From a bacterium (GTDB lineage Bacteria > Patescibacteriota > Minisyncoccia > Phycocordibacterales > UBA9973), in contig JBBCGN010000002.1 of the NCBI GenBank assembly GCA_037200905.1, forward strand, positions 22,879-86,878: a stretch of DNA of 64,000 nucleotides. The letters run 5' to 3'. Each line of letters starts with the position of its first letter. The stretch's first letter is position 1. Under the pieces are notes generated by a model, which was not told where the DNA came from, did no database searches, and saw only the letters and a program-made list of their open reading frames with translations. Positions 8,002 through 63,646 of this stretch are shown here, one piece after another. The position numbers and the translations under genes were made by a program.

Positions 8002-8652
8002 CTAATGCGCGACGGTGAAAGCTATGACTTTTTTCGCGCCGGAGGCTTTGAGGACTTTCTTGGCTTCGGACAATGTGGCGCCGGTAGTGGTGACGTCGTC
8101 GATCAGGATGATATTCCTGTTCTTGATACGTTCAGCGTGTTTCACCGCGAAAGCCCCGACGATGTTCTGCAGGCGTTCCGAGCGGTTTCCGATGCGGGCC
8201 TGATGCACGCCGTCCTTGGTTCGTATCAGAGCGTGTTTTTCCAATTTGAAATTTTTTCCATTATCGAGCGCCGCTAATTCTCTGCACATGAGCAGGCTCT
8301 GGTTGAAGCCGCGTTCGCGGTGGCGCTTGCGCGAGAGGGGAATGGGCACGAGCAGGGCGTCATGGAAATTCTCGAACTGTCCGAGGTCGGAGAGTTCCTC
8401 AAGCATCCTGCCATAGAGGGCCTGGGCGAAGACTGTGGCGAGCGGCCGCTTGCGGCTGTACTTGAGGAGCCAGACGGCCTTTTTTATTTTCTCTTCCCGA
8501 TAATCGTACAAGGGGAAAATCCAGTCCGCGCTCTCGCGCTCGGCGCCGCGGACGCCCGAGAGGCAGGCGAAGCAGAGGTCGGCGCCTTCCGCGCCGCAGG
8601 AGAGGCAGTGCGTGGGGAAAACTATGTCGAGCAGTGCGTTCCAGAGCTTCAT
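8002..8652 (-). CDS. comFC: ComF family protein (phosphoribosyltransferase-like competence protein ComFC)
   Basis: The N-terminal zinc finger reads HCLSCG...CFAC and the C-terminal PRTase motif reads IILIDDVTTTGATL. Confidence 0.9.
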   Translation of the reverse strand: MKLWNALLDIVFPTHCLSCGAEGADLCFACLSGVRGAERESADWIFPLYDYREEKIKKAVWLLKYSRKRPLATVFAQALYGRMLEELSDLGQFENFHDALLVPIPLSRKRHRERGFNQSLLMCRELAALDNGKNFKLEKHALIRTKDGVHQARIGNRSERLQNIVGAFAVKHAERIKNRNIILIDDVTTTGATLSEAKKVLKASGAKKVIAFTVAH

Positions 8653-8767
8653 ATCCGGTTAGAAATTTATATAATAGAATTTATCCGATTGTCCTAGCGT
8701 CTCGTTAATTTCTAACGGGACAGGTATATGGTATACTTGGGGCATATTCTAACACGATAATTCGCAT

Positions 8768-9880
8768 ATGGCATTTTCATTTTCCAGCATTTTTTCAAGC
8801 AACAAAGAGGTCAAGGCGGTCGGCATCGACATCGGTTCTTCGTCCATCAAGATCGTCGAGATAAAGAAGAAGGGCCCGAAAGCCGTGCTCACCACCTATG
8901 GCTCGATCGCCCTCGGCCCGTACGCCAAGACCGACGTCGGCCGGGTCACCAATCTGCCGATCGAGCAGATTGTCGCGGCCCTGAAGGAAGTCATGAAGCA
9001 GTCGGGCACCACCACGAGCCAGTCCGCGCTCTCCATACCGGTGCAGTCGAGCCTGATCTTCACCGTGGAGCTGCCCGTCGAGATCAAGGAAGCGGATATC
9101 GCGGCCGTCATCCCGACCGAGGCCCGCAAGCACATACCGGTGGCCATCAGCGAAGTGTCGCTCGATTATTTCCTCCTGCCGAAGAAGGAGAAGTCCTTCG
9201 AGGAGGCGAACGATCCCGACATGCCGGCCGGCCCGCGCGACAAGAAGACCGAGGTGCTCGTGGTGGCCATCCAGAACAATGCCATCGCCATGTACCGCTC
9301 GCTCGTGTCGCAGTGCGCGCTCGCGGTCTCGTTCTTCGAGATCGAGATCTTCTCCTCGCTCCGCGCGAACTTCGAGCACGAGCTCGCGCTGGTGCTGCTC
9401 ATGGACTTCGGCGCGTCGCGCACCAAGCTCACGCTCGTCGAGTTCGGCATGGTGAAGAGCTATCATACGGTGAACCGCGGAGGGGCGGACATCAGCGACG
9501 CCATATCGAAATCGCTCTCCGTCCCGTTCGCCCGCGCCGAAGAACTGAAGAAAGAATACGGCCTGACCGGCGCTCCGCCCGACGCGGAGATCGCGGAGAC
9601 CATCAAGACGCACGTGAACTATATCTTTTCCGAGACCAATAATGTATTATTAGGGCACGAGAAGAAGTACAATCAGACTATCAGCAAGGTCATACTCACC
9701 GGCGGCGGCGCTCTCATGAAAGGCTTGAAAGAGATGGCGGCGGCGAACTTCCGCGCGGACGTCGAAGTCGGCCATCCGTTCTCGAAAGTCGGCGCGCCGG
9801 GATTCCTGGAGAAAGTCTTCGAGGCGACCGGCCCGGAATTCGCCGTGGCTCTCGGCGTGGCTTTGAGAAAATTACAATAA
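8768..9880 (+). CDS. pilM: Type IV pilus assembly protein PilM (actin-like ATPase fold)
   Basis: The motif VGIDIGSSSIKIVEI is followed by the rest of an actin-like fold; 370 aa. Confidence 0.9.
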   Translation: MAFSFSSIFSSNKEVKAVGIDIGSSSIKIVEIKKKGPKAVLTTYGSIALGPYAKTDVGRVTNLPIEQIVAALKEVMKQSGTTTSQSALSIPVQSSLIFTVELPVEIKEADIAAVIPTEARKHIPVAISEVSLDYFLLPKKEKSFEEANDPDMPAGPRDKKTEVLVVAIQNNAIAMYRSLVSQCALAVSFFEIEIFSSLRANFEHELALVLLMDFGASRTKLTLVEFGMVKSYHTVNRGGADISDAISKSLSVPFARAEELKKEYGLTGAPPDAEIAETIKTHVNYIFSETNNVLLGHEKKYNQTISKVILTGGGALMKGLKEMAAANFRADVEVGHPFSKVGAPGFLEKVFEATGPEFAVALGVALRKLQ

Positions 9881-9913: not shown

Positions 9914-10528
9914 ATGGATAAAGATTTCCAAACATCGTTCATACCGAAGAAACCGATGACAGAAAAACGCTCAGGGGGGGACACGCCCGTGCATTTCCTG
10001 ACGGTCATCTCGCTCTTCGTATTCTTCACCGTGCTCATCGCCACCGGCGCGCTCTTCTTCTACAAGGCGGCGGTGGCCAAGAGCATCGCCAGCATGCAGA
10101 ACGACCTCGAGCTCACCAAGAACCGCTTCCAGCCGGAGAAGATCGCCGAACTGCAGACCCTCGACAAGCGCCTCAAGGCGGCGGGCGAGATTCTCGGCCA
10201 GCACATCAGCGTCACGCCGATCTTCGAGGCCCTCGAAGCCCTGACCATGAAGAGCGTGCGCTACACCAAATTCACCTATGCCCTCGCGAGCCAGGACAAC
10301 CCGAACATCTCCGTGAAGATGAGCGGCACCGCCGTGGGCTACCGCTCCATCGCGCTCCAGTCCGACCTCTTCGCCAAGAACAAGAGCATCATCGACCCGG
10401 TCTTTTCCAAGCTCACCCTCGACGATTCCGGCAACGTTTCCTTCGATCTCGACTTCTCGGTCGATCCGGCATTCGTCAATTACAAGGCAGATAGCGCGGC
10501 CGCGGCTCCGGATGCCGCCACGAATTAG
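9914..10528 (+). CDS. PilN-like bitopic pilus assembly protein
   Basis: It has a single N-terminal TM followed by a coiled-coil, and it sits directly after pilM. Confidence 0.6.
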   Translation: MDKDFQTSFIPKKPMTEKRSGGDTPVHFLTVISLFVFFTVLIATGALFFYKAAVAKSIASMQNDLELTKNRFQPEKIAELQTLDKRLKAAGEILGQHISVTPIFEALEALTMKSVRYTKFTYALASQDNPNISVKMSGTAVGYRSIALQSDLFAKNKSIIDPVFSKLTLDDSGNVSFDLDFSVDPAFVNYKADSAAAAPDAATN

Positions 10529-11603: not shown

Positions 11604-13368
11604 ATGAGTTTTTTAGAAGAATTAGCAAAAAAAGGCTTATTGAAAGAAAGCCAGATAAGCCAAGTCAAGAGCCTTGCCAACGACAAGCACGGCGGCGATG
11701 TCGATGACGCGCTCATAGAGCTCGGCGTCAAGGAAGACGACATCCTCAAGACGAAAGGGGAGTATTTCCTCATGCCGACGAAGAAGCTCGACGGCAAGGG
11801 CGTGTCCACCGACGTGCTCAAATACGTGCCGGAAGATTCCGCTACGTATTACCACTTCGTCCCGTTCGCCATGACCGACGGCGTGCTCGAAGTGGGCATC
11901 ACCAATCCGGAAAATATCCAGGCCATGGACGCCCTGCAGTTCATTTCTGCCAAGATCGGCATTCCGTTCAAGATCTTCCTCATCTCCAAGAGCGATTACG
12001 AAGCCGTCATGAGCACCTACCGGGGCCTCTCCGGCCAGGTCGGCGAAGCCCTCGATGCTCTCGGCCAGGAAGAGATGATGGACGTCATGGATCAGAAGAG
12101 CCTGAGCGAATCCATGGACCTCTCCAAGGAGATCAAGGACGTGAAGGCCGGCGCGACCGACGCGAAGATCGTCGAAGACGCGCCGATCATCAAGATCGTG
12201 GCGGTGATACTGAAGAACGCCATCGAGGGCAACGCTTCCGACATCCACATCGAGCATACCGGCGACAAGGTGAAAGTGCGCTACCGCGTGGACGGCACGC
12301 TCTACACCACGCTCACCCTGCCGATAAGCGTGCACTCGGGCATCGTGGCCCGCATCAAGATCCTCACCAAGCTCCGCCTCGACGAGAAGCGCAAGCCGCA
12401 GGACGGATCGTTCTCCGCCACCATCGAAGGGGGCCAAGATCGACTTCCGCGTCTCCACCATGCCGGGCTATTACGGCGAGAAAGTGGCCATCCGCATCCT
12501 CGATTCCGAGAAGGGCGTGAAGCCGCTCGGCGAGCTCGGCCTCTCGAAGACCAACCTGGAACTCATCCGCGAGGCCATCAAGAAGCCCTACGGCCTGATA
12601 CTGATCACCGGCCCGACCGGGAGCGGCAAATCCACCACCCTTTACTCCATGATGAACGAGCTCGACAAGGAAAAGGAGAACATCGTCACCCTCGAAGACC
12701 CGGTGGAATACCACATGCCCGACGTGAACCAGTCGCAGATGGTGCCGGAGATCGGCTACACCTTCGCCTCGGGACTGCGCTCCATCCTCCGCCAGGACCC
12801 TGACGTCATCATGGTCGGAGAGATCCGCGACAAGGAGACGGCCCAGCTCGCCATCCAGGCGGCGCTCACCGGCCACCTGGTGCTCTCGACGCTCCACACG
12901 AACAATGCCATCGGCGCCATTCCGCGCCTCGTCGACATGGGCGTCGATCCGTATCTCATCGCCCCGACGCTGATCCTCTCCGTGGCCCAGCGCCTGGCCA
13001 AGCTCACGTTCCCGGCCGCCCGCAAGAAAGTGCCGATGGACCCCTCCATCAGGCTGCAGATCGAGAACCAGATCGCCGACCTGCCGGCGGAATTCAAGAA
13101 GGACATCAGCATCGGCGACGAGATGTACGAGACCGTGTCCGTGCCGGAGTGCCCTTCGGGCACCCGCGGCCGCATCGCCGTGTACGAGATGCTCAAAGTG
13201 GATGCCGAGATCCAGAGCGTGATATTGAAGAATCCCGTCTACGCGGACATCTACAAGGCCGCCCGGCAGAAGGGCATGCTCTCGATGAGGGAAGACGCCA
13301 TGCTGAAAGCCATCGACGGCGTCATACCGTTCCGCGAAGTGTACAATTTCGTGGACGAGAAGGAATAA
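11604..13368 (+). pseudogene. pilB: Type IV pilus assembly ATPase PilB (GspE family), split by one +1 frameshift (possible sequencing indel)
   Basis: The N-terminal part (11604.. frame) reads up to ...QDGSFSATIEGG. The C-terminal part (12460.. frame) continues KIDFRVSTMPGYYGEK and carries Walker A GPTGSGKST. Dropping 1 nt in the GGGGGCC run at 12429-12435 restores a single ORF. Confidence 0.9.
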
Positions 13369-13454
13369 TCAGAGTTGTCCACACGCCGGGTGCCAGGGCG
13401 GCGATTTTGTCATATAATGAAGGTAATTAGACATAACGGGCGCGATATAACTAT

Positions 13455-13847
13455 ATGGAAGAAAAAAGAAAAATATTAATAGTCGACGACGATACCTTTC
13501 TCCTCGACATGTACGCGTTCAAGTTCAGCCAGAACAATTTCGAGGTCTACACCGCCCAGAACGGCGTGCAGGCCATCGAGAAGCTCAAGGGCGGCCTCGT
13601 GCCGGCCATCATCCTCATGGACATCATCATGCCGGAGATGGACGGCTTCGAGATGCTCGAGAAGATCAACGCCGAGAAGATGTCGCCGGACTCGGTGAAG
13701 ATCGTGCTCTCGAACAAGAACGAGCAGGCCGACATCGACCGCGGCAGCGCGCTCGGAGTGGCCGGCTATATCGTGAAGGCCAACTCCACGCCGGCGGAAG
13801 TCATCGACCAGGTCATGGAGATACTGACGAAGAAAGCGGCGAAATAA
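13455..13847 (+). CDS. Single-domain CheY-like response regulator (receiver only)
   Basis: It has KILIVDDD and ILMDIIMPEMDG (the phospho-acceptor Asp context); 130 aa. Confidence 0.85.
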   Translation: MEEKRKILIVDDDTFLLDMYAFKFSQNNFEVYTAQNGVQAIEKLKGGLVPAIILMDIIMPEMDGFEMLEKINAEKMSPDSVKIVLSNKNEQADIDRGSALGVAGYIVKANSTPAEVIDQVMEILTKKAAK

Positions 13848-13859
13848 GAAGAATTCATA

Positions 13860-14930
13860 ATGCCAGATCCAAATTCAAAAAGATTGCTTGAAAGCCTGAT
13901 CGAGAACGTCATACGCGAAGGGGGTTCGGACCTCCATCTCGGGGTGGGGCGCGTGCCGGCCATGCGCGTCTCGGGCGAGCTGATATTCCTCGCGAATAAT
14001 CCCGTGATCAGCAAGGAGGACGCCATGGGCATCCTGGGCGAGATCCTCGACAAGCCCAAGATGGAGCGCTTCCTCGAAGAGCAGGAGATGGATTTCTCGT
14101 ACGACTACAACGGGGGCGAAGCACGCCTGCGCGGCAACGTCTTCTATCAGAAAGGCTCCATCAGCATGGCGTTCCGCCTCGTGCCCTCCATCAAGAGCTT
14201 GGCCGAGCTCCATCTGCCGGACATCATCGCCGAGCTCGCCCGCAAGAAGCAGGGCTTCTTCCTCGTAGTCGGCCCCGTCGGCCAGGGAAAGTCCACCACG
14301 CTCTCCTCGATGATAAACCTCATCAACAACGAGCAGACCAAGCATATCGTCACCATCGAGGACCCGATCGAGTACGTCTTCGCCCCGAACAAGTGCATCA
14401 TCGACCAGCGCGAAGTCGGCATCGACACCAAGAGCTTCCAGGTGGCCCTCAAGTCCGTATTCCGCGAGGACGTGAACGTCATCATGATCGGCGAGATGCG
14501 CGGGCCGGAAACCATTTCCACGGCGGTCACCGCTGCGGAAACCGGCCACCTCGTGCTCTCCACGCTCCATACCAACAACGCGTCCCAGACCATCGACCGC
14601 ATCATCGACTCGTTCCCGGGCGACCAGCAGGACCAGATCCGCTCCCAGCTCGCCTCGTCGCTCCTCGGCATCTTTTCCCAGCGCCTCGTGCCGCGCATCA
14701 ACGGCGGACTGATTCCCGCATTCGAGCTGCTTCTCAACAACAACGCCGTGGCGAACCTCATCCGCGAGAAGCGCACGCACGAGATCGACGTGGTGATAGA
14801 GACGGGTTCGGAGTCGGGCATGGTGGACATGAACCATTCGCTCATGGAGCTCGTGCGCTCCGGGGAGATCACCATGGAGAACGCGTACCAGTACTCGCTC
14901 AACCCGAAGGGCCTTGAGCGCATGCTGTAA
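13860..14930 (+). CDS. pilT: Twitching-motility/retraction ATPase PilT
   Basis: It has GSDLHL, Walker A GPVGQGKST, and LVLSTLHTNNASQTIDRIID. Confidence 0.9.
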   Translation: MPDPNSKRLLESLIENVIREGGSDLHLGVGRVPAMRVSGELIFLANNPVISKEDAMGILGEILDKPKMERFLEEQEMDFSYDYNGGEARLRGNVFYQKGSISMAFRLVPSIKSLAELHLPDIIAELARKKQGFFLVVGPVGQGKSTTLSSMINLINNEQTKHIVTIEDPIEYVFAPNKCIIDQREVGIDTKSFQVALKSVFREDVNVIMIGEMRGPETISTAVTAAETGHLVLSTLHTNNASQTIDRIIDSFPGDQQDQIRSQLASSLLGIFSQRLVPRINGGLIPAFELLLNNNAVANLIREKRTHEIDVVIETGSESGMVDMNHSLMELVRSGEITMENAYQYSLNPKGLERML

Positions 14931-23401: not shown

Positions 23402-23486
23402 GGAGGCGTCGCATAGCGGTCTAGTGCGCACGCTTGGAAAGCGTGTGTGGGGCAACCCACCGAGAGTTCGAATCTCTCCGCCTCCG
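23402..23486 (+). tRNA. tRNA-Ser(GGA): tRNA-Ser (anticodon GGA), class II with a long variable arm
   Basis: The hand-folded cloverleaf has acceptor stem GGAGGCG/CGCCTCC. The anticodon stem is CACGC/GCGTG with loop TTGGAAA. The variable arm is GTGGGgcaaCCCAC, the T arm is GAGAG-TTCGAAT-CTCTC, and the discriminator is G. Confidence 0.9.
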
Positions 23487-23567
23487 CAGTTTTTCGAAAA
23501 GCATTTCCGAACCCCAAGTGTTGTGTTATAATCCAATTGTCAGATTCCTGAGAATTCCGTACTCGTA

Positions 23568-26096: not shown

Positions 26097-27056
26097 TTAT
26101 ACGGCGATAGGGGCACGGATGGCTTCATGCGGATTATAATCTGTTAATTCAAAATCACCGATGACGAAATCATCGAGATTATTCTTTTCAGGATTTATCT
26201 TCATCTTCGGCAGGGGACGAATATCATTTTTTCGCGAGAGCTGCAGCTCTACCTGCTCAAGATGATTCAAATACAAGTGCGTATCGCCGCCGGTCCAGAC
26301 GAATTCGCCCGGTTCCATGCCGACTATCTGAGCGATGATCATGACAAGCAGGGAATAAGATGCGATGTTAAACGGCACGCCGAGAAAAGTGTCGCATGAG
26401 CGTTGGTAGAGCTGGCAGGAGAGCTTCAATTTTCCGGTTTCCGGATTCGGCGCGGTATAGAACTGGAAGAGGCAATGGCACGGCGGCAGGCCGGCCTTTG
26501 CCATCTCGTCGATGTATTTCACATTCCATGCGGAGACGATCATGCGGCGGGAATCAGGGCTTTTCTTGAGAGTCTCGATGACGCTCGTAATCTGGTCGAG
26601 GCAGACATTGTCTTCGCCCGGCCAGCAGCGCCATTGCGAGCCGTAAATCGGACCCAAGTCGCCGTATTCTTTGGCAAAATTCTCGTCCGATTTTATCTTT
26701 TCCACGAATTCCTTGAGGCCCTGGTTCCACTCGTCGCTCCCGACTTTCGGCAGCTCTTTGCCGCTTTTGACGAGATACGCCTTGAACGGCCATTCGTCCC
26801 AGATGTGCACATTGTTCTCGGCCAGATATTTCAGATTGGTGTCGCCGCGGAGAAACCACAGAAGTTCGTGGATAATGGCCTTGATGGGAACTTTCTTGGT
26901 AGTGAGGAGAGGGAAGCCGTCGGCCAGGTTGAAACGCATCTGGTACCCGAAGACGCTTTTCGTGCCCGTGCCGGTGCGGTCGGTCTTTGTCTCGCCATTT
27001 TTCATGATGTGCTCGAGGAGTTCGAGATATGATTCGTCTGCATGTTTGCCTTTCAT
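26097..27056 (-). CDS. thyA: Thymidylate synthase ThyA (long form with an insert)
   Basis: It has [12 protein letters not shown] and the catalytic [11 protein letters not shown] prefer the ATG at 27056 over the upstream GTG at 27089. Confidence 0.9.
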
Positions 27057-27122: not shown

Positions 27123-27180
27123 CTTAGTAATCATTCTCACCTTATTATTTAACGAGAACTGACGATTGTGGAAATTAGCA

Positions 27181-27216
27181 TTGTTTGTCATCACAGCTAG
27201 TGTCCATGACAAACAA
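27181..27216 (+). promoter_or_regulatory. 5'-UTR hairpin (11-bp perfect inverted repeat) ending 7 nt before the helicase ATG
   Basis: The structure is TTGTTTGTCAT-(14 nt)-ATGACAAACAA. Confidence 0.5.
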
Positions 27217-27222
27217 AGCAAT

Positions 27223-28530
27223 ATGAACACACGCACTACTAGTGCTGCTCCGAAGCGATTCGGACGCGCACCATCTACCTACCGAGCCGAACCTAGTTTC
27301 GGCAGGAAGCCAGCAGCCCGCTCCGGCGGATCATTTAATAATCGCGGCGGCTTCAAGCCCCGTTTCCAAGGCTCTAACCGTGGAGGCGGACGCGGCGGCG
27401 CAAAATCTCGCGGCGAACGCATCGACTTTTCCCGATTTATCCAGAAAGGGGTGTACGTCGAAGAAAAGCCGTATATAGCAAAGCACACCTTTGCAGACTT
27501 TCCCTTCAACGCTCAGCTCCACAAGAATATCGAACGGGCCGGCTACACCAGCCCTCGTCCGATCCAGGACCAGTCTATCCCGAGCGTACTCGCAGGCAAG
27601 GACGTCTTCGGCATGGCCAATACCGGTACCGGCAAGACCGCGGCATTTCTCCTGCCGCTCATCGAGAAGATCGCCAAGACCAAAGGCATGAACAAGCGGG
27701 AGATGGTACTCATCATGGCGCCGACCCGCGAGCTCGCCCTCCAGATCGAATCCGATTTCCAGAAGCTTTCTTTCGGCCTCGGCATGTTTTCCGTGGGCTG
27801 CGTCGGCGGACTGCCGATGGGCAAGCAGATCTCCGAGATCAGACAAGGAGTCTCTTTCGTCATCGGCACGCCGGGACGGCTGACCGACCTCATCAAGCAG
27901 AAGGTCCTCGACCTCTCTACCTGCCACTCCGTCGTCCTCGACGAGGCTGACCGCATGCTCGACATGGGCTTCCGCGACGATATGGTATTCATCATCGGCA
28001 AGACAGCAGAGGAGCGCCAGACCCTATTCTTTTCCGCTACGCTCTCTCCAGAAATCCGTAAGCTTACCACTCAGTTTCTCAAAGATCCTGAATTCATTTC
28101 AGTCATTTCCGGCGAGACTGCCAAGAACATCGACCAGAATATCGTCCGTGCGGGCACCAAGGAAGACAAGCTCGAGAAGCTTGCCGAGATCCTCAGGAAA
28201 GACGGTTCCGACAAGGTGCTGATCTTCCGCGAGATGAAGCACAGCGTCGACAGCCTGGCCAAGGACCTCGCACACATGGGCTTCAAGGTGGGCGGCATCC
28301 ATGGCGACAAGAGGAGCCGTGAGCGCATCCGCATCCTCGACCAGTTCAAGCGCGACCAGATCAACATCCTCATTGCCACCGACGTGGCGGCCCGCGGACT
28401 CGATATCCCGGACGTGACGCACGTCATCAACTTCGACGTGCCGCAGACCTATGACACGTACGTGCACCGTATCGGCCGAACCGGCCGCGCGGGCAAGAAG
28501 GGGACAGCGCTGACCTTCGTACCGGCATAA
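27223..28530 (+). CDS. DEAD-box ATP-dependent RNA helicase with an N-terminal RGG-rich extension
   Basis: It has a Q-motif, Walker A (ANTGTGKT), a DEAD box (VLDEADRMLD), SAT and HRIGRTGRAG. The N-terminus reads RGGFKPRFQGSNRGGGRGGAKSRG. Confidence 0.9.
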   Translation: MNTRTTSAAPKRFGRAPSTYRAEPSFGRKPAARSGGSFNNRGGFKPRFQGSNRGGGRGGAKSRGERIDFSRFIQKGVYVEEKPYIAKHTFADFPFNAQLHKNIERAGYTSPRPIQDQSIPSVLAGKDVFGMANTGTGKTAAFLLPLIEKIAKTKGMNKREMVLIMAPTRELALQIESDFQKLSFGLGMFSVGCVGGLPMGKQISEIRQGVSFVIGTPGRLTDLIKQKVLDLSTCHSVVLDEADRMLDMGFRDDMVFIIGKTAEERQTLFFSATLSPEIRKLTTQFLKDPEFISVISGETAKNIDQNIVRAGTKEDKLEKLAEILRKDGSDKVLIFREMKHSVDSLAKDLAHMGFKVGGIHGDKRSRERIRILDQFKRDQINILIATDVAARGLDIPDVTHVINFDVPQTYDTYVHRIGRTGRAGKKGTALTFVPA

Positions 28531-37565: not shown

Positions 37566-37609
37566 GCGTCGCGCCGAAAGGACTGGCGCGACCTGATTCG
37601 CAAAATCAT
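37566..37609 (+). promoter_or_regulatory. Conserved two-hairpin leader element, copy 1, abutting the rplC start codon
   Basis: The GC hairpin is GTCGCGCC-GAAAGGACT-GGCGCGAC. The second hairpin is TGATT-CGCAA-AATCA, followed by T and then ATG (37610). Confidence 0.7.
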
Positions 37610-38224
37610 ATGAAATTCATTTTGGCAAAAAAAGAAAACATGGCGGAATTTTTCTCTGAAGAGGGAGTGGTTTTCCCCGTGACCATCCTCTCTGCCGGAC
37701 CTGTCACCGTCACCCGCGTCTTCGAGCATGCCAAGGACGGCTACGATGCCGTACAGGTAGGTTATGGCACGCAGAAGGAGCACCGCATCTCAAAAGCCCG
37801 CAAGGGCCAGATGAAGGGCGTGCTCTACCGCGACCTCAAAGAATTCCGACTGAAGCCGACCGATACGACCGAAGCCAAAGAAGGCGACGTCGTGGATGTC
37901 TCTGCATTCGAAATTGGCGATAGACTCCAGGTTTCGAGCGTCTCGAAAGGTAAGGGCTTCCAGGGCGTGGTCAAGCGCCATGGCTTCAAAGGCGGTCCTC
38001 GATCTCACGGTCAGAAGCACTCCGAGCGCGAGCCGGGTTCTATCGGCGGAGGCTTGCGCACGCACGTGCCGAAGGGCATGCGCATGGCAGGCCGCATGGG
38101 TTCCGACAGAATCACTCAGAAAAATCTGAAAGTAGTCTTTGTCGACAAAGAGAATAATCTCTTGCTCGTCAAAGGCGCTATCACCGGCAAGAAAGGCACC
38201 TTGGTTGAGATAGTTTCAAGATAA
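37610..38224 (+). CDS. rplC: 50S ribosomal protein L3
   Basis: It is an L3 family sequence (...KGKGFQGVVKRHGFKGGPRSHG...). Confidence 0.97.
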   Translation: MKFILAKKENMAEFFSEEGVVFPVTILSAGPVTVTRVFEHAKDGYDAVQVGYGTQKEHRISKARKGQMKGVLYRDLKEFRLKPTDTTEAKEGDVVDVSAFEIGDRLQVSSVSKGKGFQGVVKRHGFKGGPRSHGQKHSEREPGSIGGGLRTHVPKGMRMAGRMGSDRITQKNLKVVFVDKENNLLLVKGAITGKKGTLVEIVSR

Positions 38225-43885: not shown

Positions 43886-43888
43886 GGG

Positions 43889-43917
43889 TTTGACTAACAG
43901 GCGAGAGTCTGCTAGTA
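43889..43917 (+). promoter_or_regulatory. Internal promoter candidate in the rplE-rpsN spacer
   Basis: The arrangement is GGGGTTTGACT-N17-(TGC)TAGTAT. It shares the GGTTTGAC...TGCTAnTAT pattern with the tuf promoter candidate; the rpsS candidate reads TATTTGAC at the -35 end and shares only TTTGAC...TGCTAATAT. Confidence 0.5.
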
Positions 43918-44035
43918 TGGGAACACGTGAGATGCAGATCCGTTCTTCTCCTTAAGCGCCCAAGTGATATTGATTTATAAGGGTATTTAAGAAATAGAAC
44001 GAGATATCGCACTTCGCAGAAGGGGAATTAATTTT

Positions 44036-44079
44036 GCGTCGCGCCAAATCGACTTGCGCGACGTGATTTGCAAAATCAT
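44036..44079 (+). promoter_or_regulatory. Conserved two-hairpin leader element, copy 2, abutting the rpsN start codon
   Basis: The GC hairpin is CGTCGCGC-CAAATCGACTT-GCGCGACG. The second hairpin is TGATT-TGCAA-AATCA, followed by T and then ATG (44080). Confidence 0.7.
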
Positions 44080-44265
44080 ATGGCAAAAACATCAGTATTA
44101 GCTAGAAATGCAAAGAAAAAGAAGTTTTCTACTCGCGAGAAAAACCGATGTTTTCGCTGCGGCCGCGGCAACGGCTATATGAGAGACTTCGGCATCTGCC
44201 GCATCTGCTTCCGCGAGCTTGCCAACGAAGGCATGCTTCCGGGCGTCCGCAAGTCTAGCTGGTAA
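44080..44265 (+). CDS. rpsN: 30S ribosomal protein S14, type Z (zinc-binding, 61 aa)
   Basis: It begins [16 protein letters not shown] and has the CFRCG...CRICF zinc motif. Confidence 0.93.
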
Positions 44266-49877: not shown

Positions 49878-52649
49878 ATGGAAGAGCCGTACTTAAAACA
49901 GATGCTCAAATTCAAGACTCCCGAAGAGGAGCTCGAATATCTGCGCGCCCACGTGGCGCGCCGTGAAGAAGAACTGATCAAGGCGGGACATTTCGAGCAC
50001 GGCGTAGATGCGCACGGTGCTGCTGTCAAAGAGATGGTACAGGAATACAAAGAAGTGCCGGCGCAGCATGTCGTGCATAAAGACAATCTCGTAAGCGAAA
50101 AGGAGGCCAAAGGTCTCGTTCTGAAATTGAAGCCTGAAACGCACGATGTCATCATGGAAGAACTGCTCGGCCTCGTCATCACCAAGGGCGTCAGGAACGC
50201 CCTTTCCGTCGTGGCGAACATGGCCAACCCGCACATCGACGACGACTTCCACCGCCTGCTCATCCAATACATGAGGACCGGCGAGATCCTGCCGGAGCTC
50301 AAAGCCGGCAGTACCCTCGCCAAGTCGCTCGACATGGCCCTCTTCGAAGTGACCCTGCCGCCGGCCTCGGACGAGCCGGGGCAGCAGAAGGGCTTCAAGG
50401 AGTTCATCGGTGCCATGGAGCAGTTCTATGCCGGCATGCAGTCCATCGCCGAGGACAAGCGCAACGAGAAGCAGTACTATTTCACGCTCGAAGTGGCGCT
50501 CGGCAACCAGGGCGACGAGCTGGTCATCTATGCGGCGGTGCCCCGCAGGCACACGTCGCTCTTCGAGAAGCTGGTGCAGTCCTTCTATCACAATGCCAAG
50601 GTGAACGAAGTGCCCGACGACTATAACATCTTCCATGAAGGCGGAGGGTCGGCCGGCGCGTACGCGCATTTCGCCGAGCGCTCGGTCCTGCCGATCAAGA
50701 CCTACGACGCGATCGATCATGATCCGATGAATACCATCTTGAACGTATTCTCGAAGTTGAAGACGACGGGCGAAGGGGCGGCCATCCAGCTCGTGGTGGC
50801 GCCGGCGGGGGACAAATACATAAACGAATTCCATATGATACTCGACGACGTGAAGAGCGGCACTTCCGTCAAGCATGCGGACGATCAGGTGCATAAATTC
50901 GGCCAGGCTTTCTTGAAAGCTTCCAAAGACATCATCTTCGGCTACAAGAAAGAGGAGAAGAAGGAGGAGAAGTATGTCGCCGGCAGGCGGGCGGTGGACG
51001 AAGGAGCCGTGGAGAAGATCACGAACAAGATGAAGAGCTCCATCATGAAGGCCAATATCCGCATCATCGCGTCCGGCGAGACGAAAGAGCGCGCCGAATC
51101 CATACTGAAGGAGATCGAATCCTCCTTCAACCAGTTCTCCGAGGCGGCGGCGAACTCCCTCGTCTTCGAGAAGGCTTCCGGTAGCGAGCTCAAGGAACTC
51201 TTTCATGACTTCTCATACCGGGCCTTTTCCGACAGCCATATCCTGCCGATGAACTTGAAGGAGCTCGCGTCGGTCTTCCATTTCCCGGTGGGCATCGGCT
51301 CGCAGCCCCAGCTCAAGGAGGCGAAGGCGGGCATCGCGCCGGCGCCGATGGAGATGGGGCAGGAAGGCATCGTGCTCGGCGTCAACGACTATCGCGGCAA
51401 AGAGACTCTGATACACATGTCCCGCGAAGACCGCGTGCGCCATTTCTATGTCATCGGCCAGACGGGTACCGGCAAGACCAATATCCTCCTGAACATGATC
51501 ACCCAGGACATCAAGAACGGCGACGGCTGCTGCTATATCGACCCGCACGGCACCGATATACAGACCATCCTTTCGCGCATCCCGAAAGAACGCCTCGACG
51601 ACGTCATCTATTTCGATCCGGCATACACCGCGCGCCCGATGGGCCTCAACATGCTCGAGTACGATCCGAAATATCCGGAGCAGAAGACCTTCGTGGTAAA
51701 CGAGATGATGGGCATCTTCAACAAGCTCTTCGACATGAAAGCCGGCGGCGGCGCCATGTTCGAGCAGTACTTCAGGAACAGCGCCTTCCTCATCATGGAG
51801 GATCCGGAGTCCGGCTCGACCCTGCTCGAGATCACCCGGGTGCTCTCCGACAAGGCCTTCCGCGACATGAAGCTCGCGCGCTGCAAGAACCCGATCATCA
51901 AGCAGTTCTGGGTGAGCGCCGAGCAGACCACGGGGGACCAGTCGCTCGCGAACTTCGTGCCGTACATATCTTCGAAATTCGACAACTTCATCTCGAACGA
52001 TATCATGCGCCCGGTCGTGCTGCAGCAGCATTCCGTCTTCGATTTCAGGAAGATCATGGACGAGAAGAAGATCCTGCTCGTGAACCTGTCGAAGGGCCGG
52101 CTCGGCGACATCAACGCGAACCTGATCGGTCTCGTGCTCGTGGGCAAGATCCAGATGGCGGCGCTCTCCCGCGTCGACATGTTCGGCAAGCCGATGAACG
52201 ATTTTTATCTCTATATCGACGAGTTCCAGAACGTCACCACGGATTCCATCTCGTCCATCCTCTCCGAGGCCCGCAAGTACCGGCTCTCGCTCAACATCGC
52301 CCATCAGTACATCAGCCAGCTCGACGAAGGCATCAAGAACGCCGTCTTCGGCAACGTCGGCTCGATGGCGGTCTTCCGCGTCGGCACCGAGGATGCGCAG
52401 TTCCTCGAGGCGAAGTTCAAGCCGACATTCACCGCGTCCGACATCGCCAAGCTCGACAACTACAATGCCTACGTCAACATGCTCGTCCGCGGCCAGCCGT
52501 CGAAGCCGTTCAACATCAAGACCATGGCGCCGGAAGCGGGGAATGCGGCCATCGTCGACGACCTGAAACAGCTCTCGTACATGAAATACGGCCGCGACCG
52601 CGACGAAGTGGAGGCGGAAATCATGGCCCGCTATACCGGCGCGCAATAG
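49878..52649 (+). CDS. TraD/VirD4-like (FtsK/HerA-superfamily) P-loop ATPase with a ~520-aa soluble N-terminal region
   Basis: It has Walker A (GQTGTGKT), a Walker B-like YLYIDEFQ, and the coupling-protein-type ARKYRLSLNIAHQYISQL. I see no obvious TM helix. A TATAAT (49864-49869) sits only 8 nt before the ATG. Confidence 0.75.
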   Translation: MEEPYLKQMLKFKTPEEELEYLRAHVARREEELIKAGHFEHGVDAHGAAVKEMVQEYKEVPAQHVVHKDNLVSEKEAKGLVLKLKPETHDVIMEELLGLVITKGVRNALSVVANMANPHIDDDFHRLLIQYMRTGEILPELKAGSTLAKSLDMALFEVTLPPASDEPGQQKGFKEFIGAMEQFYAGMQSIAEDKRNEKQYYFTLEVALGNQGDELVIYAAVPRRHTSLFEKLVQSFYHNAKVNEVPDDYNIFHEGGGSAGAYAHFAERSVLPIKTYDAIDHDPMNTILNVFSKLKTTGEGAAIQLVVAPAGDKYINEFHMILDDVKSGTSVKHADDQVHKFGQAFLKASKDIIFGYKKEEKKEEKYVAGRRAVDEGAVEKITNKMKSSIMKANIRIIASGETKERAESILKEIESSFNQFSEAAANSLVFEKASGSELKELFHDFSYRAFSDSHILPMNLKELASVFHFPVGIGSQPQLKEAKAGIAPAPMEMGQEGIVLGVNDYRGKETLIHMSREDRVRHFYVIGQTGTGKTNILLNMITQDIKNGDGCCYIDPHGTDIQTILSRIPKERLDDVIYFDPAYTARPMGLNMLEYDPKYPEQKTFVVNEMMGIFNKLFDMKAGGGAMFEQYFRNSAFLIMEDPESGSTLLEITRVLSDKAFRDMKLARCKNPIIKQFWVSAEQTTGDQSLANFVPYISSKFDNFISNDIMRPVVLQQHSVFDFRKIMDEKKILLVNLSKGRLGDINANLIGLVLVGKIQMAALSRVDMFGKPMNDFYLYIDEFQNVTTDSISSILSEARKYRLSLNIAHQYISQLDEGIKNAVFGNVGSMAVFRVGTEDAQFLEAKFKPTFTASDIAKLDNYNAYVNMLVRGQPSKPFNIKTMAPEAGNAAIVDDLKQLSYMKYGRDRDEVEAEIMARYTGAQ

Positions 52650-55674: not shown

Positions 55675-56280
55675 ATGGACGCACTTGCAAACAATCCGTA
55701 TCTTAAACATGGCCATCAGCAGATAAAGATCTGCGTTTCCGGCGCGGCCGACACCGGCCACTGCGGCGTGGACGCCCTCGAGAAGGCCAAGGAGCTCGGC
55801 CGGGAGATCGCCCGTCAGGGCGCGGTGCTCGTCACCGGCGCCACCACGGGCTTCCCGCTCTGGGCCGCCATGGGCGTGAAGGAAGTCGGCGGCATATCTA
55901 TCGGCTTCTCTCCGGCATCGAACGAGAAAGAGCACGTGGAAGTCTACAAGCTGCCGCTCGACTACATGGATCTGATCGTCTATACCGGCTTCGGCTATCC
56001 GGGCCGCGACCTCTTGCTCACGCGCTCCTGCGACGCCGTCATCTGCGGCTGCGGGCGCATCGGCACCATTCACGAGTTTACCATTGCTTTCGAGGACGGC
56101 AAGACCATCGGCATCTACGAAGGGCCGTGGGAGATGGGCGACGAGCTGAAGCAGATACTCGAGAAAGGCCACCGGCCGAACGACAACATCGCCATCGGCG
56201 ACGACCCGAAGAAGATGGTGTCGGACGTGCTCGCCCTCGTGCATAAGCACAAAGTAGACGAATTCAAGATCGCTCCGTAG
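55675..56280 (+). CDS. LOG/TIGR00725-family Rossmann protein (SLOG-type)
   Basis: The sequence reads ICVSGAADTGHCG...AVLVTGATTG...GGISIGFSP...DAVICGCGRIGTIHEF. Confidence 0.65.
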   Translation: MDALANNPYLKHGHQQIKICVSGAADTGHCGVDALEKAKELGREIARQGAVLVTGATTGFPLWAAMGVKEVGGISIGFSPASNEKEHVEVYKLPLDYMDLIVYTGFGYPGRDLLLTRSCDAVICGCGRIGTIHEFTIAFEDGKTIGIYEGPWEMGDELKQILEKGHRPNDNIAIGDDPKKMVSDVLALVHKHKVDEFKIAP

Positions 56281-57250: not shown

Positions 57251-57649
57251 CTAGGCGGGGATCTTTGCTGTCTTTGCGATCTTTGCCTCGCCCGTAGGGC
57301 TATGGCCGAGGGCGGCGTCCATGACTTTCGTGAAGGTCGATGGATGATGCTCGGCGAGGTCGGAGAGGATCTTGCGGTCGAGGGCGATACCCTTCTTGTG
57401 GAGGGCATCGATGAGCTTGGAGTAGCTCATGCCGTTCACGCGGGCGCCGGCGTTGATCTTGATGTTCCAGAGCTTGCGGTTATGGCTCTTCTTGTCCTTG
57501 CGGTGCGCGAAGGAATAGCTGCCGGCGTGGAGCAGGGCGTCCTTGGCCTGGCGCTCCTTGGTGCTGCGGCCGTGGCGCATGCCTTTGGTCTGCTTCAGCA
57601 CGCTTCTTCGTCTCTTCAATGCATGTACTCCTTTTTTAACTCTTGTCAT
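57251..57649 (-). CDS. rplT: 50S ribosomal protein L20
   Basis: It begins MTRVKKGVHALKRRRSVLKQTKG; 132 aa, with a C-terminal extension. Confidence 0.95.
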   Translation of the reverse strand: MTRVKKGVHALKRRRSVLKQTKGMRHGRSTKERQAKDALLHAGSYSFAHRKDKKSHNRKLWNIKINAGARVNGMSYSKLIDALHKKGIALDRKILSDLAEHHPSTFTKVMDAALGHSPTGEAKIAKTAKIPA

Positions 57650-57705
57650 GTGTGATTTTGCGAATCACGTCGCGCAAGTCCTTTTGGCGCGACGCTTTCT
57701 AATTA
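57650..57705 (-). promoter_or_regulatory. Conserved two-hairpin leader element, copy 3, between rpmI and rplT
   Basis: On the minus strand it reads GCGTCGCGC-CAAAAGGACTT-GCGCGACG, then TGATT-CGCAA-AATCA, then CAC-ATG. Confidence 0.7.
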
Positions 57706-57712
57706 TTTTTAA

Positions 57713-57907
57713 TTAACTGAACGGCATCAAATGGCTCTTCGGCTTGTTCTTGATGACGAAGTTTTCGCCCTTGCGGCCGGCGAGCTGGGTGTTTCTCGAC
57801 TGCTTGGCGTTGAAATGGTTGAAGCCGGGCTTGCGCGAGATCACCTTGCCATTCTTCGTGACTTTCAATCTCTTGCTGAACGATTTGTTTGTTTTCATTC
57901 CTTTCAT
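57713..57907 (-). CDS. rpmI: 50S ribosomal protein L35
   Basis: It begins MKGMKTNKSFSKRLKVTKNGK. Confidence 0.9.
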   Translation of the reverse strand: MKGMKTNKSFSKRLKVTKNGKVISRKPGFNHFNAKQSRNTQLAGRKGENFVIKNKPKSHLMPFS

Positions 57908-58463: not shown

Positions 58464-59855
58464 TTATGCCCCTAAAGTCAACCTGACCTGTTCAAATATA
58501 GCGTTTATGCGGTTTTGGTCCAAAGCTTCGCCAAAAGCCCGTACGATAGGCTCGGTATTGGAGGGGCGGATGTGCACCCATGAGTTATCGGCCCAGTCAA
58601 AGCGCACGCCGTCGAGTGTGTTGATTTCAGCATCGGCAAATTTTTCCTTGAGCTTGGCATAGACGGTACTCAGGTCGCCTTGGAAATCGAACTTATCTTT
58701 TTGCATGACGTATTTCGGGAAGCTGGCGACAATCTCGGAAATTTTTCTGCCGTCGCGAGCGAGGAGGTCGAGGACGAGCGCCATGCCGGAAAGGCTGTCG
58801 CGGAAATAGCCGACAGCAGGGAATATCGCGCCGCCCGAACCTTCGCCGCCGACATGCGCGCCGACCTCGATCATTTTCTGCACGACATTGGCTTCGCCGA
58901 CTTTTGTGCGATAAAACCGCGCACCGTATTCGCGGGCGACATCTTCGCAGACGCGAGTAGTAGAGAGATTTACCACGGTAGCGCTCTCGTGCTCTTCTTC
59001 TTTTGCCCGCGACAGGACGCTTTTTATGACGAGCGAGACCATCAGTTCTTCCAAGATGAATTCGCCGCGCTCGTTCACGAGCACGAGGCGGTCGGCATCG
59101 GGGTCTTGGACGAAGCCGACATCATGAGTGACTGACTTCATGAAGGCCAGGGTGTCGGTCAGGTTTTTCTCGAGCGGCTCGGGCGTGTGGGCGAAGTTGC
59201 CGTCAGGCGTCTGGTTTATGCCGTGAACTTCGCAGCCGAGCCGAGCGAGGAGTTCTTGAGCGAACGGGCCGCCGCCGGAGTTTATGGAGTCGAGGGCGAC
59301 TGTGAATTTCTTGCTGCGTATCAAATCCGCATCGACATGTTTCAAAACTTCCTGCGCATGAATCATGCGGAATTCGGCATTATCGGATGCTGGTTCTGCG
59401 CTGTCTGGCGGCAGGCTTGGGATCTTATCGGCGCCGGCCAATGCGGCTCGCCATTTCTCTATCTCGGCCGTCTGCGCCTCGTTCGTGAGCATGCCGTCGG
59501 GCATGATGAATTTCACGCCGTTGTATTCGGGAGGATTGTGGCTCGCGGTAATCATGATGCCGCCGTCAAAGCCCAGCTTCTTGGTGAGCAGGAGCATGGA
59601 CGGGGTAGGCAGGATGCCGGCGTAGGTGACTTCGATATGTTCTTTCTCAAGCGCTTCTTCGGCGGCATGGAAGATGTTCGGGCCGGAATGGCGGGCATCG
59701 CGGCCGACGAGGACTTTTACTTTGTCTTTGCCCTTATTGGCATCGGCGATCATGCGCGCAAAAGAACGCGCATATTCGAAAGCGATCTGCTCGTTCAAAT
59801 CCTGGCCCCAGATAGCCCGGTAGCCGGTGACCGATAATTTTGGTTTTTGCGACAT
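58464..59855 (-). CDS. Alpha-D-phosphohexomutase (phosphomannomutase/phosphoglucomutase/GlmM family)
   Basis: It has the active-site loop ITASHNPPEYNGVKF and the metal site FVQDPDADR; 463 aa. Confidence 0.88.
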   Translation of the reverse strand: MSQKPKLSVTGYRAIWGQDLNEQIAFEYARSFARMIADANKGKDKVKVLVGRDARHSGPNIFHAAEEALEKEHIEVTYAGILPTPSMLLLTKKLGFDGGIMITASHNPPEYNGVKFIMPDGMLTNEAQTAEIEKWRAALAGADKIPSLPPDSAEPASDNAEFRMIHAQEVLKHVDADLIRSKKFTVALDSINSGGGPFAQELLARLGCEVHGINQTPDGNFAHTPEPLEKNLTDTLAFMKSVTHDVGFVQDPDADRLVLVNERGEFILEELMVSLVIKSVLSRAKEEEHESATVVNLSTTRVCEDVAREYGARFYRTKVGEANVVQKMIEVGAHVGGEGSGGAIFPAVGYFRDSLSGMALVLDLLARDGRKISEIVASFPKYVMQKDKFDFQGDLSTVYAKLKEKFADAEINTLDGVRFDWADNSWVHIRPSNTEPIVRAFGEALDQNRINAIFEQVRLTLGA

Positions 59856-63239: not shown

Positions 63240-63244
63240 GTATG

Positions 63245-63646
63245 TGGAGATGGCGAGAATTGAACTCGCGTGCAGAAGGGTTTTGCAGAGAAGTCTACGT
63301 GCGTAGCGCGCTTTTTGTTTTAAATCGGAAAGCTAATAAGCGGGCGAAATATTTTCCGATCGAGCCCTAGGTTTTCGTCTCCGACCTCAAGCCGGGTCGG
63401 AGCTTATCCCGATAATATTATGCCCGTGCCGTATATATCGGAAGTCTATACGTCGGACACCAGCTCGCGCGCTTACGCGAAGGCTGGAGCGAATGCGAAG
63501 TCCGCCTTACCGAAGTAAGGTGAAAGTCGAGCAAGCGCTTTGGAAGCTGATTTTGCAATTAGCTTGAGAACGAATTTTTACGAGATTACGTTCATGCTCG
63601 GCATGCATCAATGGCAAAATTCCAACTGTCTATGCCTGGCATCCCC
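63245..63646 (-). ncRNA. ssrA: tmRNA (SsrA), ~402 nt
   Basis: On the minus strand the 5' GGGGATG pairs with the 3' CATCTCC, giving a G3:U wobble, with discriminator A. The T-arm is GCGAG-TTCAATT-CTCGC. The block GCATGCCGAG...CTCGTAAAAA resembles E. coli tmRNA. The tag ORF is GCA AAA TCA GCT ... GCC TTC GCG TAA, encoding AKSASKALARLSPYFGKADFAFAPAFA*. Confidence 0.85.

Follow-up and report, generated by a model that had tools for sequence, protein, structure and literature searches.

A two-hairpin leader repeated at the start codons of ribosomal protein and other genes in Paceibacteria

Why should one short sequence stand directly before the start codons of several different ribosomal protein genes? 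The question is raised by a stretch of 64,000 nucleotides (nt) of patescibacterial DNA, here called the window (GCA_037200905.1, contig JBBCGN010000002.1, positions 22,879 to 86,878). An original prediction, made from the letters of the window, had described three near-identical two-hairpin elements at the starts of rplC, rpsN and rplT, and the sequences were found where it had placed them. The window elements are 44-47 nt long and end 1-3 nt ahead of ATG. Each consists of GCGUCGCGC (the 5' arm of hairpin 1), a loop of ~10 nt, GCGCGAC (the 3' arm), one junction base and the tail UGAUUYGCAAAAUCA (hairpin 2), followed by 1-3 nt and AUG. The stem of 8-9 base pairs (bp) holds one U-A pair and is thus not the all-GC stem first described. 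The range first given for copy 3 (57647-57705) contains the element and takes in 10 nt of flank; the true end is 57695. The copies and the genes that they adjoin are as follows.

37566..37612, forward strand: copy 1, rplC leader; hairpin 1 at 37568-37592, junction C at 37593, hairpin 2 (tail) at 37594-37608, then T and the ATG at 37610-37612.
37610..38224, forward strand: rplC (L3, 204 amino acids (aa); Pfam PF00297), whose ATG adjoins copy 1.
44036..44082, forward strand: copy 2, rpsN (type Z S14) leader; hairpin 1 at 44037-44063, hairpin 2 (tail) at 44064-44078, then T and the ATG at 44080-44082.
44080..44265, forward strand: rpsN (S14, 61 aa; Pfam PF00253), whose ATG adjoins copy 2.
57647..57695, reverse strand: copy 3, rplT leader; hairpin 1 at 57694-57668, hairpin 2 (tail) at 57667-57653, then CAC and the ATG at 57649-57647.
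57251..57649, reverse strand: rplT (L20, 132 aa; Pfam PF00453), whose ATG lies 3 nt past copy 3.

The covariance-model scores were 64.2 bits for copy 1, 75.7 bits for copy 2 and 68.5 bits for copy 3. By Pfam, the genes flanking the three copies are S10 and L3, L5 and S14, and L35 and L20, the last pair being preceded by IF3; copy 1 begins 15 nt past the rpsJ stop. The hairpin 1 pattern has exactly 3 matches in 64 kb, compared with 0.01 expected from shuffles, and exact matches to the 15-nt tail TGATTYGCAAAATCA in the window fall at those three places and nowhere else. No further copy in the window was found by the covariance model with its filters off.

Our answer to the question is that the element is probably, if far from certainly, a cis-acting RNA module that occupies the ~45 nt directly ahead of a cistron and influences translation initiation at the AUG that follows, in a Paceibacteria clade poor in Shine-Dalgarno (SD) sequences. 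The constant features of the copies lead to this reading, namely the downstream AUG, the orientation, a stable hairpin under selection and an invariant A-rich tract that ends on the AUG.

Placement was judged also from copies beyond the window. In a scan of metagenome DNA, the search pattern specified the tail arms and part of the 3' arm and left the ATG, the 5' arm and the hairpin 2 loop free. The scan returned 18 loci: 11 real copies, in AT-rich DNA of related Paceibacteria/Nomurabacteria-like bacteria, and 7 chance matches in G+C-rich DNA. All 11 copies have the 5' arm AGCGUCGCGC and the hairpin 2 loop UGCAA, neither of which the pattern demanded, and in all 11 an ATG, equally undemanded, follows 0-1 nt past AAUCA in the same orientation. 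Three more copies come from a related genome, GCA_040384245.1 (L154; loci outside the window carry L numbers). All 17 copies (3 window, 11 metagenome, 3 L154) are in sense orientation with an ATG 0-3 nt past AAUCA, and each adjoining ATG opens an open reading frame (ORF), the L154 products being known from called genes and N-termini. The motif is therefore not the generic repetitive extragenic palindrome (REP), scattered over random contexts, that the original prediction had weighed against its own proposal. A scan of viral contigs gave no copy. A search of genome contigs with GCGTCGCGCC-N10-GCGCGAC gave, among the matches listed, chance matches in high-GC genomes, none with the tail.

The cistrons are not confined to ribosomal proteins, as had first been thought. 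Six kinds of product were assigned by Pfam at the metagenome copies: NusA in four loci, ribosomal protein S11 (rpsK), the C-terminal subunit of a split transketolase (tktC), a cupredoxin-like small membrane protein in three orthologous loci, a DUF5679 zinc-ribbon protein and a secreted Ala-rich protein. Roughly half of the copies stand between cistrons: at rplC, rplT, the cupredoxin genes and tktC, an ORF on the same strand stops 3-17 nt ahead of the element. The nusA copies are preceded by a canonical terminator and then ~25 nt of AT-rich DNA. Since intercistronic and post-terminator copies both occur, the common denominator is the downstream AUG and not a promoter. At one nusA copy (L125 1724-1765, reverse strand) the frame past the element ends after 13 codons (MLDIKTFKSALNS, then a stop); a frameshift, a pseudogene or an error of assembly may lie behind this.

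Structure was analysed on an alignment of 16 copies fitted to the covariance model. Hairpin 1 has a G+C-rich stem of 8-9 bp and a loop of 8-15 nt, usually with AA..GAC, and is followed by one junction nucleotide. Hairpin 2 is an A-rich, weakly self-pairing tract, UGAUU(U)-loop-(A)AAUCA, with AUG 0-3 nt later. RNAalifold, run without an imposed structure, predicted both hairpins. The energy of hairpin 1 ranged from -8.7 to -16.5 kcal/mol, with a pairing probability of at least 0.83 in 15 of the 16 copies; the window copies gave -13 to -16.5 kcal/mol (-16.5 for the isolated fold of copy 1) and a pairing probability of about 1. As in structured cis-regulatory RNAs generally, compensatory substitutions were found: 4 of the 8 pairs of hairpin 1 are substituted on both sides with pairing kept (C-G to U-A twice, C-G to A-U, and U-A to C-G), all of these events coming from the three copies of the one genome L154. 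Of the alignment cells in hairpin 1, 97% are paired, the observed covariation was reached by 0 of 500 column shuffles, and slid controls collapsed. From the compensatory changes and the shuffle result it follows that hairpin 1 is an RNA structure under selection. Conservation and covariation, which the original prediction had proposed to look for in relatives, are thus present in one of them.

Hairpin 2 has the same arms in all 16 copies, also where the stem of hairpin 1 has changed, and its indels are confined to the loop (GCA, CGCA, UGUA, CGCAA). The length variation of this loop and of the hairpin 1 loop fits RNA hairpins better than a rigid dimeric DNA operator.

Relatives were sampled through their proteins and not through a DNA pattern. 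L3 homologs place the organism among Paceibacterota/Nomurabacteria-type Patescibacteria of the Candidate Phyla Radiation (CPR), and close homologs are all 204 aa long and agree in their N-terminus. The L154 contig (45% GC; L3 80% and S14 92% identical to the window, ribosomal proteins about 80%) was found through an S14 homolog miscalled at 82 aa, whose N-terminal extension is the translated element. Its copies stand before rpsN (72 bits) and, at 34 bits each, before rplB and rplC. Its rpsN copy (10020-10066) is identical to window copy 2 at 44 of 47 positions, compared with a neighbouring ~110-nt leader that is only partly alignable, a contrast in sequence which indicates that the rpsN element is under selection. 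The loops are locus-specific and common to the window and L154 (AAAGGAC at rplC, AAAUCGACUU at rpsN), and this indicates vertical inheritance of the copies at the rplC and rpsN junctions since the two lineages split.

Elsewhere the element is present in patches. In six relatives with L3 80-86% identical, the element is lacking from the rpsJ-rplC spacers (5-30 nt), and one of the six has a small unrelated hairpin followed by ACAAACAU and AUG, so conservation at these junctions is not general. At nusA, the site is empty in L146 within otherwise alignable flanks and filled in L125, L129 and L136. Hairpins of unrelated sequence, followed by an A-rich tail, stand at the same places in L143, L144 and L148. 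In ~158 kb of related loci, the covariance model with its filters off gave no diverged or extra copies besides those of L154, and no other repeated leader families were found in the relatives. A private variant, a C in the tail loop, is common to two of the three window copies and occurs in 0 of the 11 metagenome copies, the position having been free in the pattern. Patchy orthologous presence together with this variant shows that copies have been gained, lost or converted; a mobile-cassette component is compatible with action on initiation.

The host itself makes little use of SD sequences. An SD core in the region -20..-4 was present in 4 of 75 predicted genes, compared with 11% of random positions, in agreement with the original description of an SD-less genome. 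The upstream regions of window genes are A-rich at -11..-5 and favour T at -1, and the tail of the element fits this profile. Nearly all genes lack an SD with or without the element, so that the suggestion of a structured element replacing the SD was too strong. TAnnnT hexamers ending 6-12 nt before ATG are enriched (19% versus 6.6%), the geometry of leaderless mRNA. TATACT, TAGAAT or TATAAT stands 6-10 nt before the ATG of many genes, such as 26097-27056 (reverse strand), 58464-59855 (reverse strand), 49878-52649 (forward strand) and 55675-56280 (forward strand). With boxes near the ATG and the SD near-absent, many window genes look leaderless.

How might the element act on initiation? In the mechanism that we propose, hairpin 1 would stay folded as an anchor and insulator, possibly with protection of the 5' end. 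Hairpin 2, when open, would offer the A-rich, G-poor leader preferred by SD-independent initiation. When closed, or when clamped by a factor recognising the two stacked hairpins, it would bury positions -1 to -16 and block the AUG. The tail arms are invariant though the stem has drifted, which suggests that a shared protein or the ribosome recognises this sequence specifically. GUGAUU of the tail could pair with GAUCAC of 16S rRNA, but it lies 16 nt from the AUG; no 16S or other rRNA was found in the window or the fetched loci. Through one shared factor, nusA, a few other genes and the S10, spc, alpha and L20 operons could be regulated together. Of the candidates in the original prediction, the common regulator and the structured initiation element are still the readings that we prefer. 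A more ambitious version, which we consider speculative and rather doubtful, is a bacterial counterpart of the eukaryotic 5' terminal oligopyrimidine (5'TOP) system, in which one factor or the ribosome would read a shared leader on the AUGs of S10, spc, alpha, IF3-L35-L20 and nusA. If it were true, synthesis of the translation and transcription machinery would be co-ordinated in SD-free CPR bacteria with reduced genomes by a system replacing the operon-specific feedback loops of ribosomal proteins.

Several points weigh against a module of this kind. The tract of the second hairpin and its place before the AUG are as originally described, and its pairing is thermodynamically marginal: hairpin 2 in isolation gave -0.5 to -1.5 kcal/mol, and its pairing probability in context was 0-0.85. 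Its arms never vary, so covariation lends it no support, and the tail may instead be a motif of linear sequence. Ascertainment accounts for some of the invariance, because the search pattern fixed the 3' arm and the tail arms; most copies were found by that pattern, and the three copies of L154 alone are unbiased. The gene set is not a clean regulon, and a shared factor would be hypothetical, with no candidate. Finally, the element is missing at these junctions in most relatives and is therefore dispensable there.

To our knowledge, almost nothing is known of translation starts or of the regulation of ribosome synthesis in the CPR/Patescibacteria, which are uncultured bacteria with reduced genomes. 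Known SD-independent leaders, namely the structured rpsA leader of E. coli and the Kozak-like A-rich leaders of Bacteroidetes, resemble the element in an A-rich, G-poor tract before the AUG and in hairpins flanking single-stranded A/U, but they are not a repeated, sequence-invariant cassette common to many genes. Multi-target operators, such as those of phage T4 RegA, the MS2/R17 coat protein (a hairpin) and CsrA, are likewise short shared RNA signals that overlap or adjoin the initiation codons of several mRNAs. The GGA of CsrA sites occurs in the hairpin 1 loop of some copies and is not conserved, most copies having UGA or CGA, so a CsrA-type loop was rejected.

Comparison with Rfam placed the element in no family. 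At gathering thresholds the window gives only a tmRNA and a tRNA, and in E-value mode the three sites give chance matches only (E > 0.2). A literature search found the tail sequence in none of the papers covered and found nothing on CPR leaders. As far as Rfam goes, the claim that the motif was not previously described therefore stands: it is an uncatalogued structured motif on start codons. The autoregulatory leaders of ribosomal protein operons (L20, S10/L4, the S8 site of spc and the S4 site of the alpha operon; Rfam r-leaders; Eckert & Weinberg 2020, PMC7247131) are also structured RNAs at or near start codons of ribosomal protein genes, and copies of the element fall in the same classically autoregulated operons (S10, spc, alpha and IF3-L35-L20). 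The known leaders, however, each belong to a single operon and protein and imitate a site in rRNA, whereas one motif here serves several operons, nusA and non-ribosomal genes. An operon-specific leader was rejected, as the same motif precedes rplC, rplB, rpsN, rplT, rpsK, nusA, tktC and the cupredoxin-like, DUF5679 and secreted-protein genes. The element is an uncatalogued structured leader motif of a familiar general type, the cis-regulatory 5' leader, and is unusual in being one sequence-defined cassette for many cistrons exactly at their start codons, in an SD-free CPR lineage. A shared operator, if true, would be an alternative to the operon-by-operon model of ribosomal protein autoregulation. 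So compact and sequence-defined a leader can be synthesised, which offers a handle on SD-independent initiation and possibly the pull-down of a global regulator.

Four rival explanations were considered. We rank first a constitutive cassette that acts as stabiliser and landing pad, then a selfish repeat, next an RNA processing site, and last a DNA-level or BoxA function. The first survives best and is a real, if minor, possibility. It would be a leader cassette without a dedicated factor, in which hairpin 1 guards the mRNA against decay from its 5' end (RNase J or RNase Y type) and shields the start region from upstream sequence, the tail is an SD-independent landing pad, and the identity of copies comes from copying between loci. 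Two promoter-like sites were found in the window near copies of the element.

57702..57730, reverse strand: promoter-like site TTGATG-17-AATAAT, a consensus match only; its -10 stops 6 nt short of the first G of copy 3.
43890..43918, forward strand: promoter-like site TTGACT-17-TAGTAT (TG-extended), just past the rplE stop and ~110 nt upstream of copy 2.

The first of these sites would suit a constitutive leader, as would the TATAAT of L131, L134 and L137, which stands 4-7 nt ahead of the element, and the position of the nusA copies past a terminator and an AT-rich stretch. RNase Y is encoded in a relative, the stem of hairpin 1 can change by compensation, and the leaders of unrelated hairpin and A-rich tail in L143, L144 and L148 are further points in its favour. 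Against it, the copies at rplC, tktC and the cupredoxin genes are intercistronic without a clear promoter. The tail arms are invariant even in diverged copies, which an unstructured pad would not need, and other genes use diverse A-rich leaders. The second promoter-like site lies in a 194-nt spacer between rplE and rpsN; the gene pairs originally given as operon-internal junctions are right, but copy 2 may not be strictly operon-internal.

A selfish miniature mobile repeat tolerated beside start codons (REP/REPIN-like, similar to a miniature inverted-repeat transposable element (MITE), or an IS200/IS605-type palindrome) is improbable. Like REP sequences, bacterial interspersed mosaic elements (BIME), REPINs and MITEs such as the Correia elements of Neisseria, the copies are short, G+C-rich, palindromic, dispersed and near-identical, and they differ in presence and absence among relatives. 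Orthologous sites are filled or empty both at nusA (L125, L129 and L136 against L146) and at rplC (the window and L154 against the six relatives), and the private tail-loop C of two window copies would suit such a repeat too. Repeats of this kind would be expected in both orientations and at varied intergenic sites, often at 3' ends or as inverted pairs. Instead, position and orientation are tied strictly to start codons in 17 of 17 copies, 0-3 nt from ATG; no copy lies between convergent genes or at a 3' end, there are no inverted pairs, no target-site duplication is visible, and the element is not known to be linked to a transposase. The locus-specific loops, inherited vertically between the window and L154, and the compensatory stem changes also speak against a selfish repeat, as does the lack of copies in the viral contigs scanned. 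Putative mobile promoters (50-100 nt, at least 80% identity, before non-homologous genes; Matus-Garcia et al. 2012, PMC3488235) are comparable in that a highly similar sequence precedes unrelated genes within and across genomes. The identity and the unrelated genes fit, but the length of 44-51 nt (45 nt as against 50-100 nt) is at or below the cut-off, no usable promoter lies inside, and the element sits between a promoter and the ATG or between cistrons.

Slightly less probable still is an RNA processing site, at which an endonuclease would cut in or next to the tail and free cistrons with very short or no leaders. Leaderless-type promoter geometry is found at many host genes and many copies are intercistronic, which would agree with such a cut, and an AU-rich tract beside a stable hairpin resembles sites of the RNase E/Y type. 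The nusA copies, however, follow their own terminator and AT-rich region, where processing would be needless. Substrates of RNase III need a longer stem than 8-9 bp, and the RNase III-type site among the first candidates is unlikely on this established knowledge of its substrates.

Least probable is a function in DNA or transcription, whether as the operator of a dimeric transcription factor (the tail being a 6-N3-6 palindrome with a Fur-like outer TGAT..ATCA), as an attenuator or terminator, or as a diverged BoxA bound by NusB/S10, since tail half-site spacing varies (3-4 nt), as does the hairpin 1 loop (8-15 nt), and there is no antisense copy. The palindromic tail is the point in favour of an operator. 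For BoxA one may cite the copies before nusA and just after rpsJ (NusE), and translation can be repressed by a BoxA that lies within 50 nt of the start codon (Baniulyte et al. 2017, PMC5725501). BoxA of Nus-factor genes is, like the element, a short conserved RNA element within 50 nt of the start codon, but its consensus GYTCTTTAANA (R allowed at position 8) has 0 matches in the window and the canonical form was rejected; a lineage-specific BoxA may exist beside this mismatch. An intrinsic terminator was rejected as well, because the stem is followed by GUGAUUUGC with no U-tract and the terminator scan flags 0 of 3 sites, the terminators of the lineage being canonical with T-runs. A sigma-70 promoter for leaderless mRNA inside the element (a TTGACT-like hexamer in the loop with CAAAAT) would start transcription at or beyond the ATG. 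The candidate -35 varies within the element (GGACUU, CGACUU, UUGGCU) and is not flagged by the promoter scan.

Three further possibilities were set aside. The tail is without GGAG, GAGG or AGGA and is not an SD site. A pseudoknot between the hairpin 1 loop and the tail is inconsistent in its pairing among copies, and the linker is sterically too short. A coding role was rejected because the frame across the element shifts with the 0-3 nt spacing, the sole protein evidence being a gene caller reading through. Public annotation has been affected in this way. Part of the contig JBBCBH010011367.1 of GCA_037975565.1 (L123, record positions 67846-88430, reversed) is 100% identical to window 27640-48224, and in both element-bearing genomes, L123 and L154, public L3 calls are 194 aa long and start 30 nt too late; S14 goes uncalled in L123 and is called at 82 aa through the element in L154. 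Knowledge of the element thus corrects gene calls, where the L3 start is misplaced and S14 is skipped or extended.

The region ahead of copy 2 has features of its own. There (window 43886-44035, forward strand; L154 9867-10019) the ~110-nt leader that comes after the promoter-like site shows islands conserved between the two genomes, for example ATCCGYTYTTCTCCTTWAA and AAGAAA..GAGATAT, and may be a separate rpsN/spc-operon leader. In L154 the corresponding promoter-like site reads TTGACT...TAATAT. Directly before the element, window 44024-44035 holds the 12-mer GGAATTAATTTT, which in another genome stands directly before the rplC ATG (L149 1238-1249; L150 317-328). This could be chance, or the 12-mer could belong to an older leader that the element later joined.

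Ribosomal protein operons of relatives are in places broken by foreign genes. In L120, rplB and rpsS are separated by unknown ORFs and a HicA-toxin gene (12544-13888); in L154, 8774-9866 holds an opposite-strand unknown ORF and a pilin-like N_methyl gene between rplE and rpsN.

Two other hairpins in the window recall parts of the element. At 27180-27222 (forward strand) GTTTGTCAT..ATGACAAAC forms an unrelated hairpin of 9 bp, after which come AAAGCAAT and the start codon ATG of gene 27223-28530, the same layout of hairpin and A-rich tail in another sequence. At 8697-8730 (forward strand), in the divergent intergenic region 8652-8768, the hairpin AGCGTCTCGTTAATTTCTAACGGGACAGG comes right after TATATAAT; its first bases resemble the 5' arm of the element, the covariance-model match is weak (10.9 bits, E 0.36), and it may be a distant cousin. 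The window also carries a tRNA-Ser(GGA) gene at 23402-23487 (forward strand) and a tmRNA gene at 63242-63646 (reverse strand) with the tag AKSASKALARLSPYFGKADFAFAPAFA.

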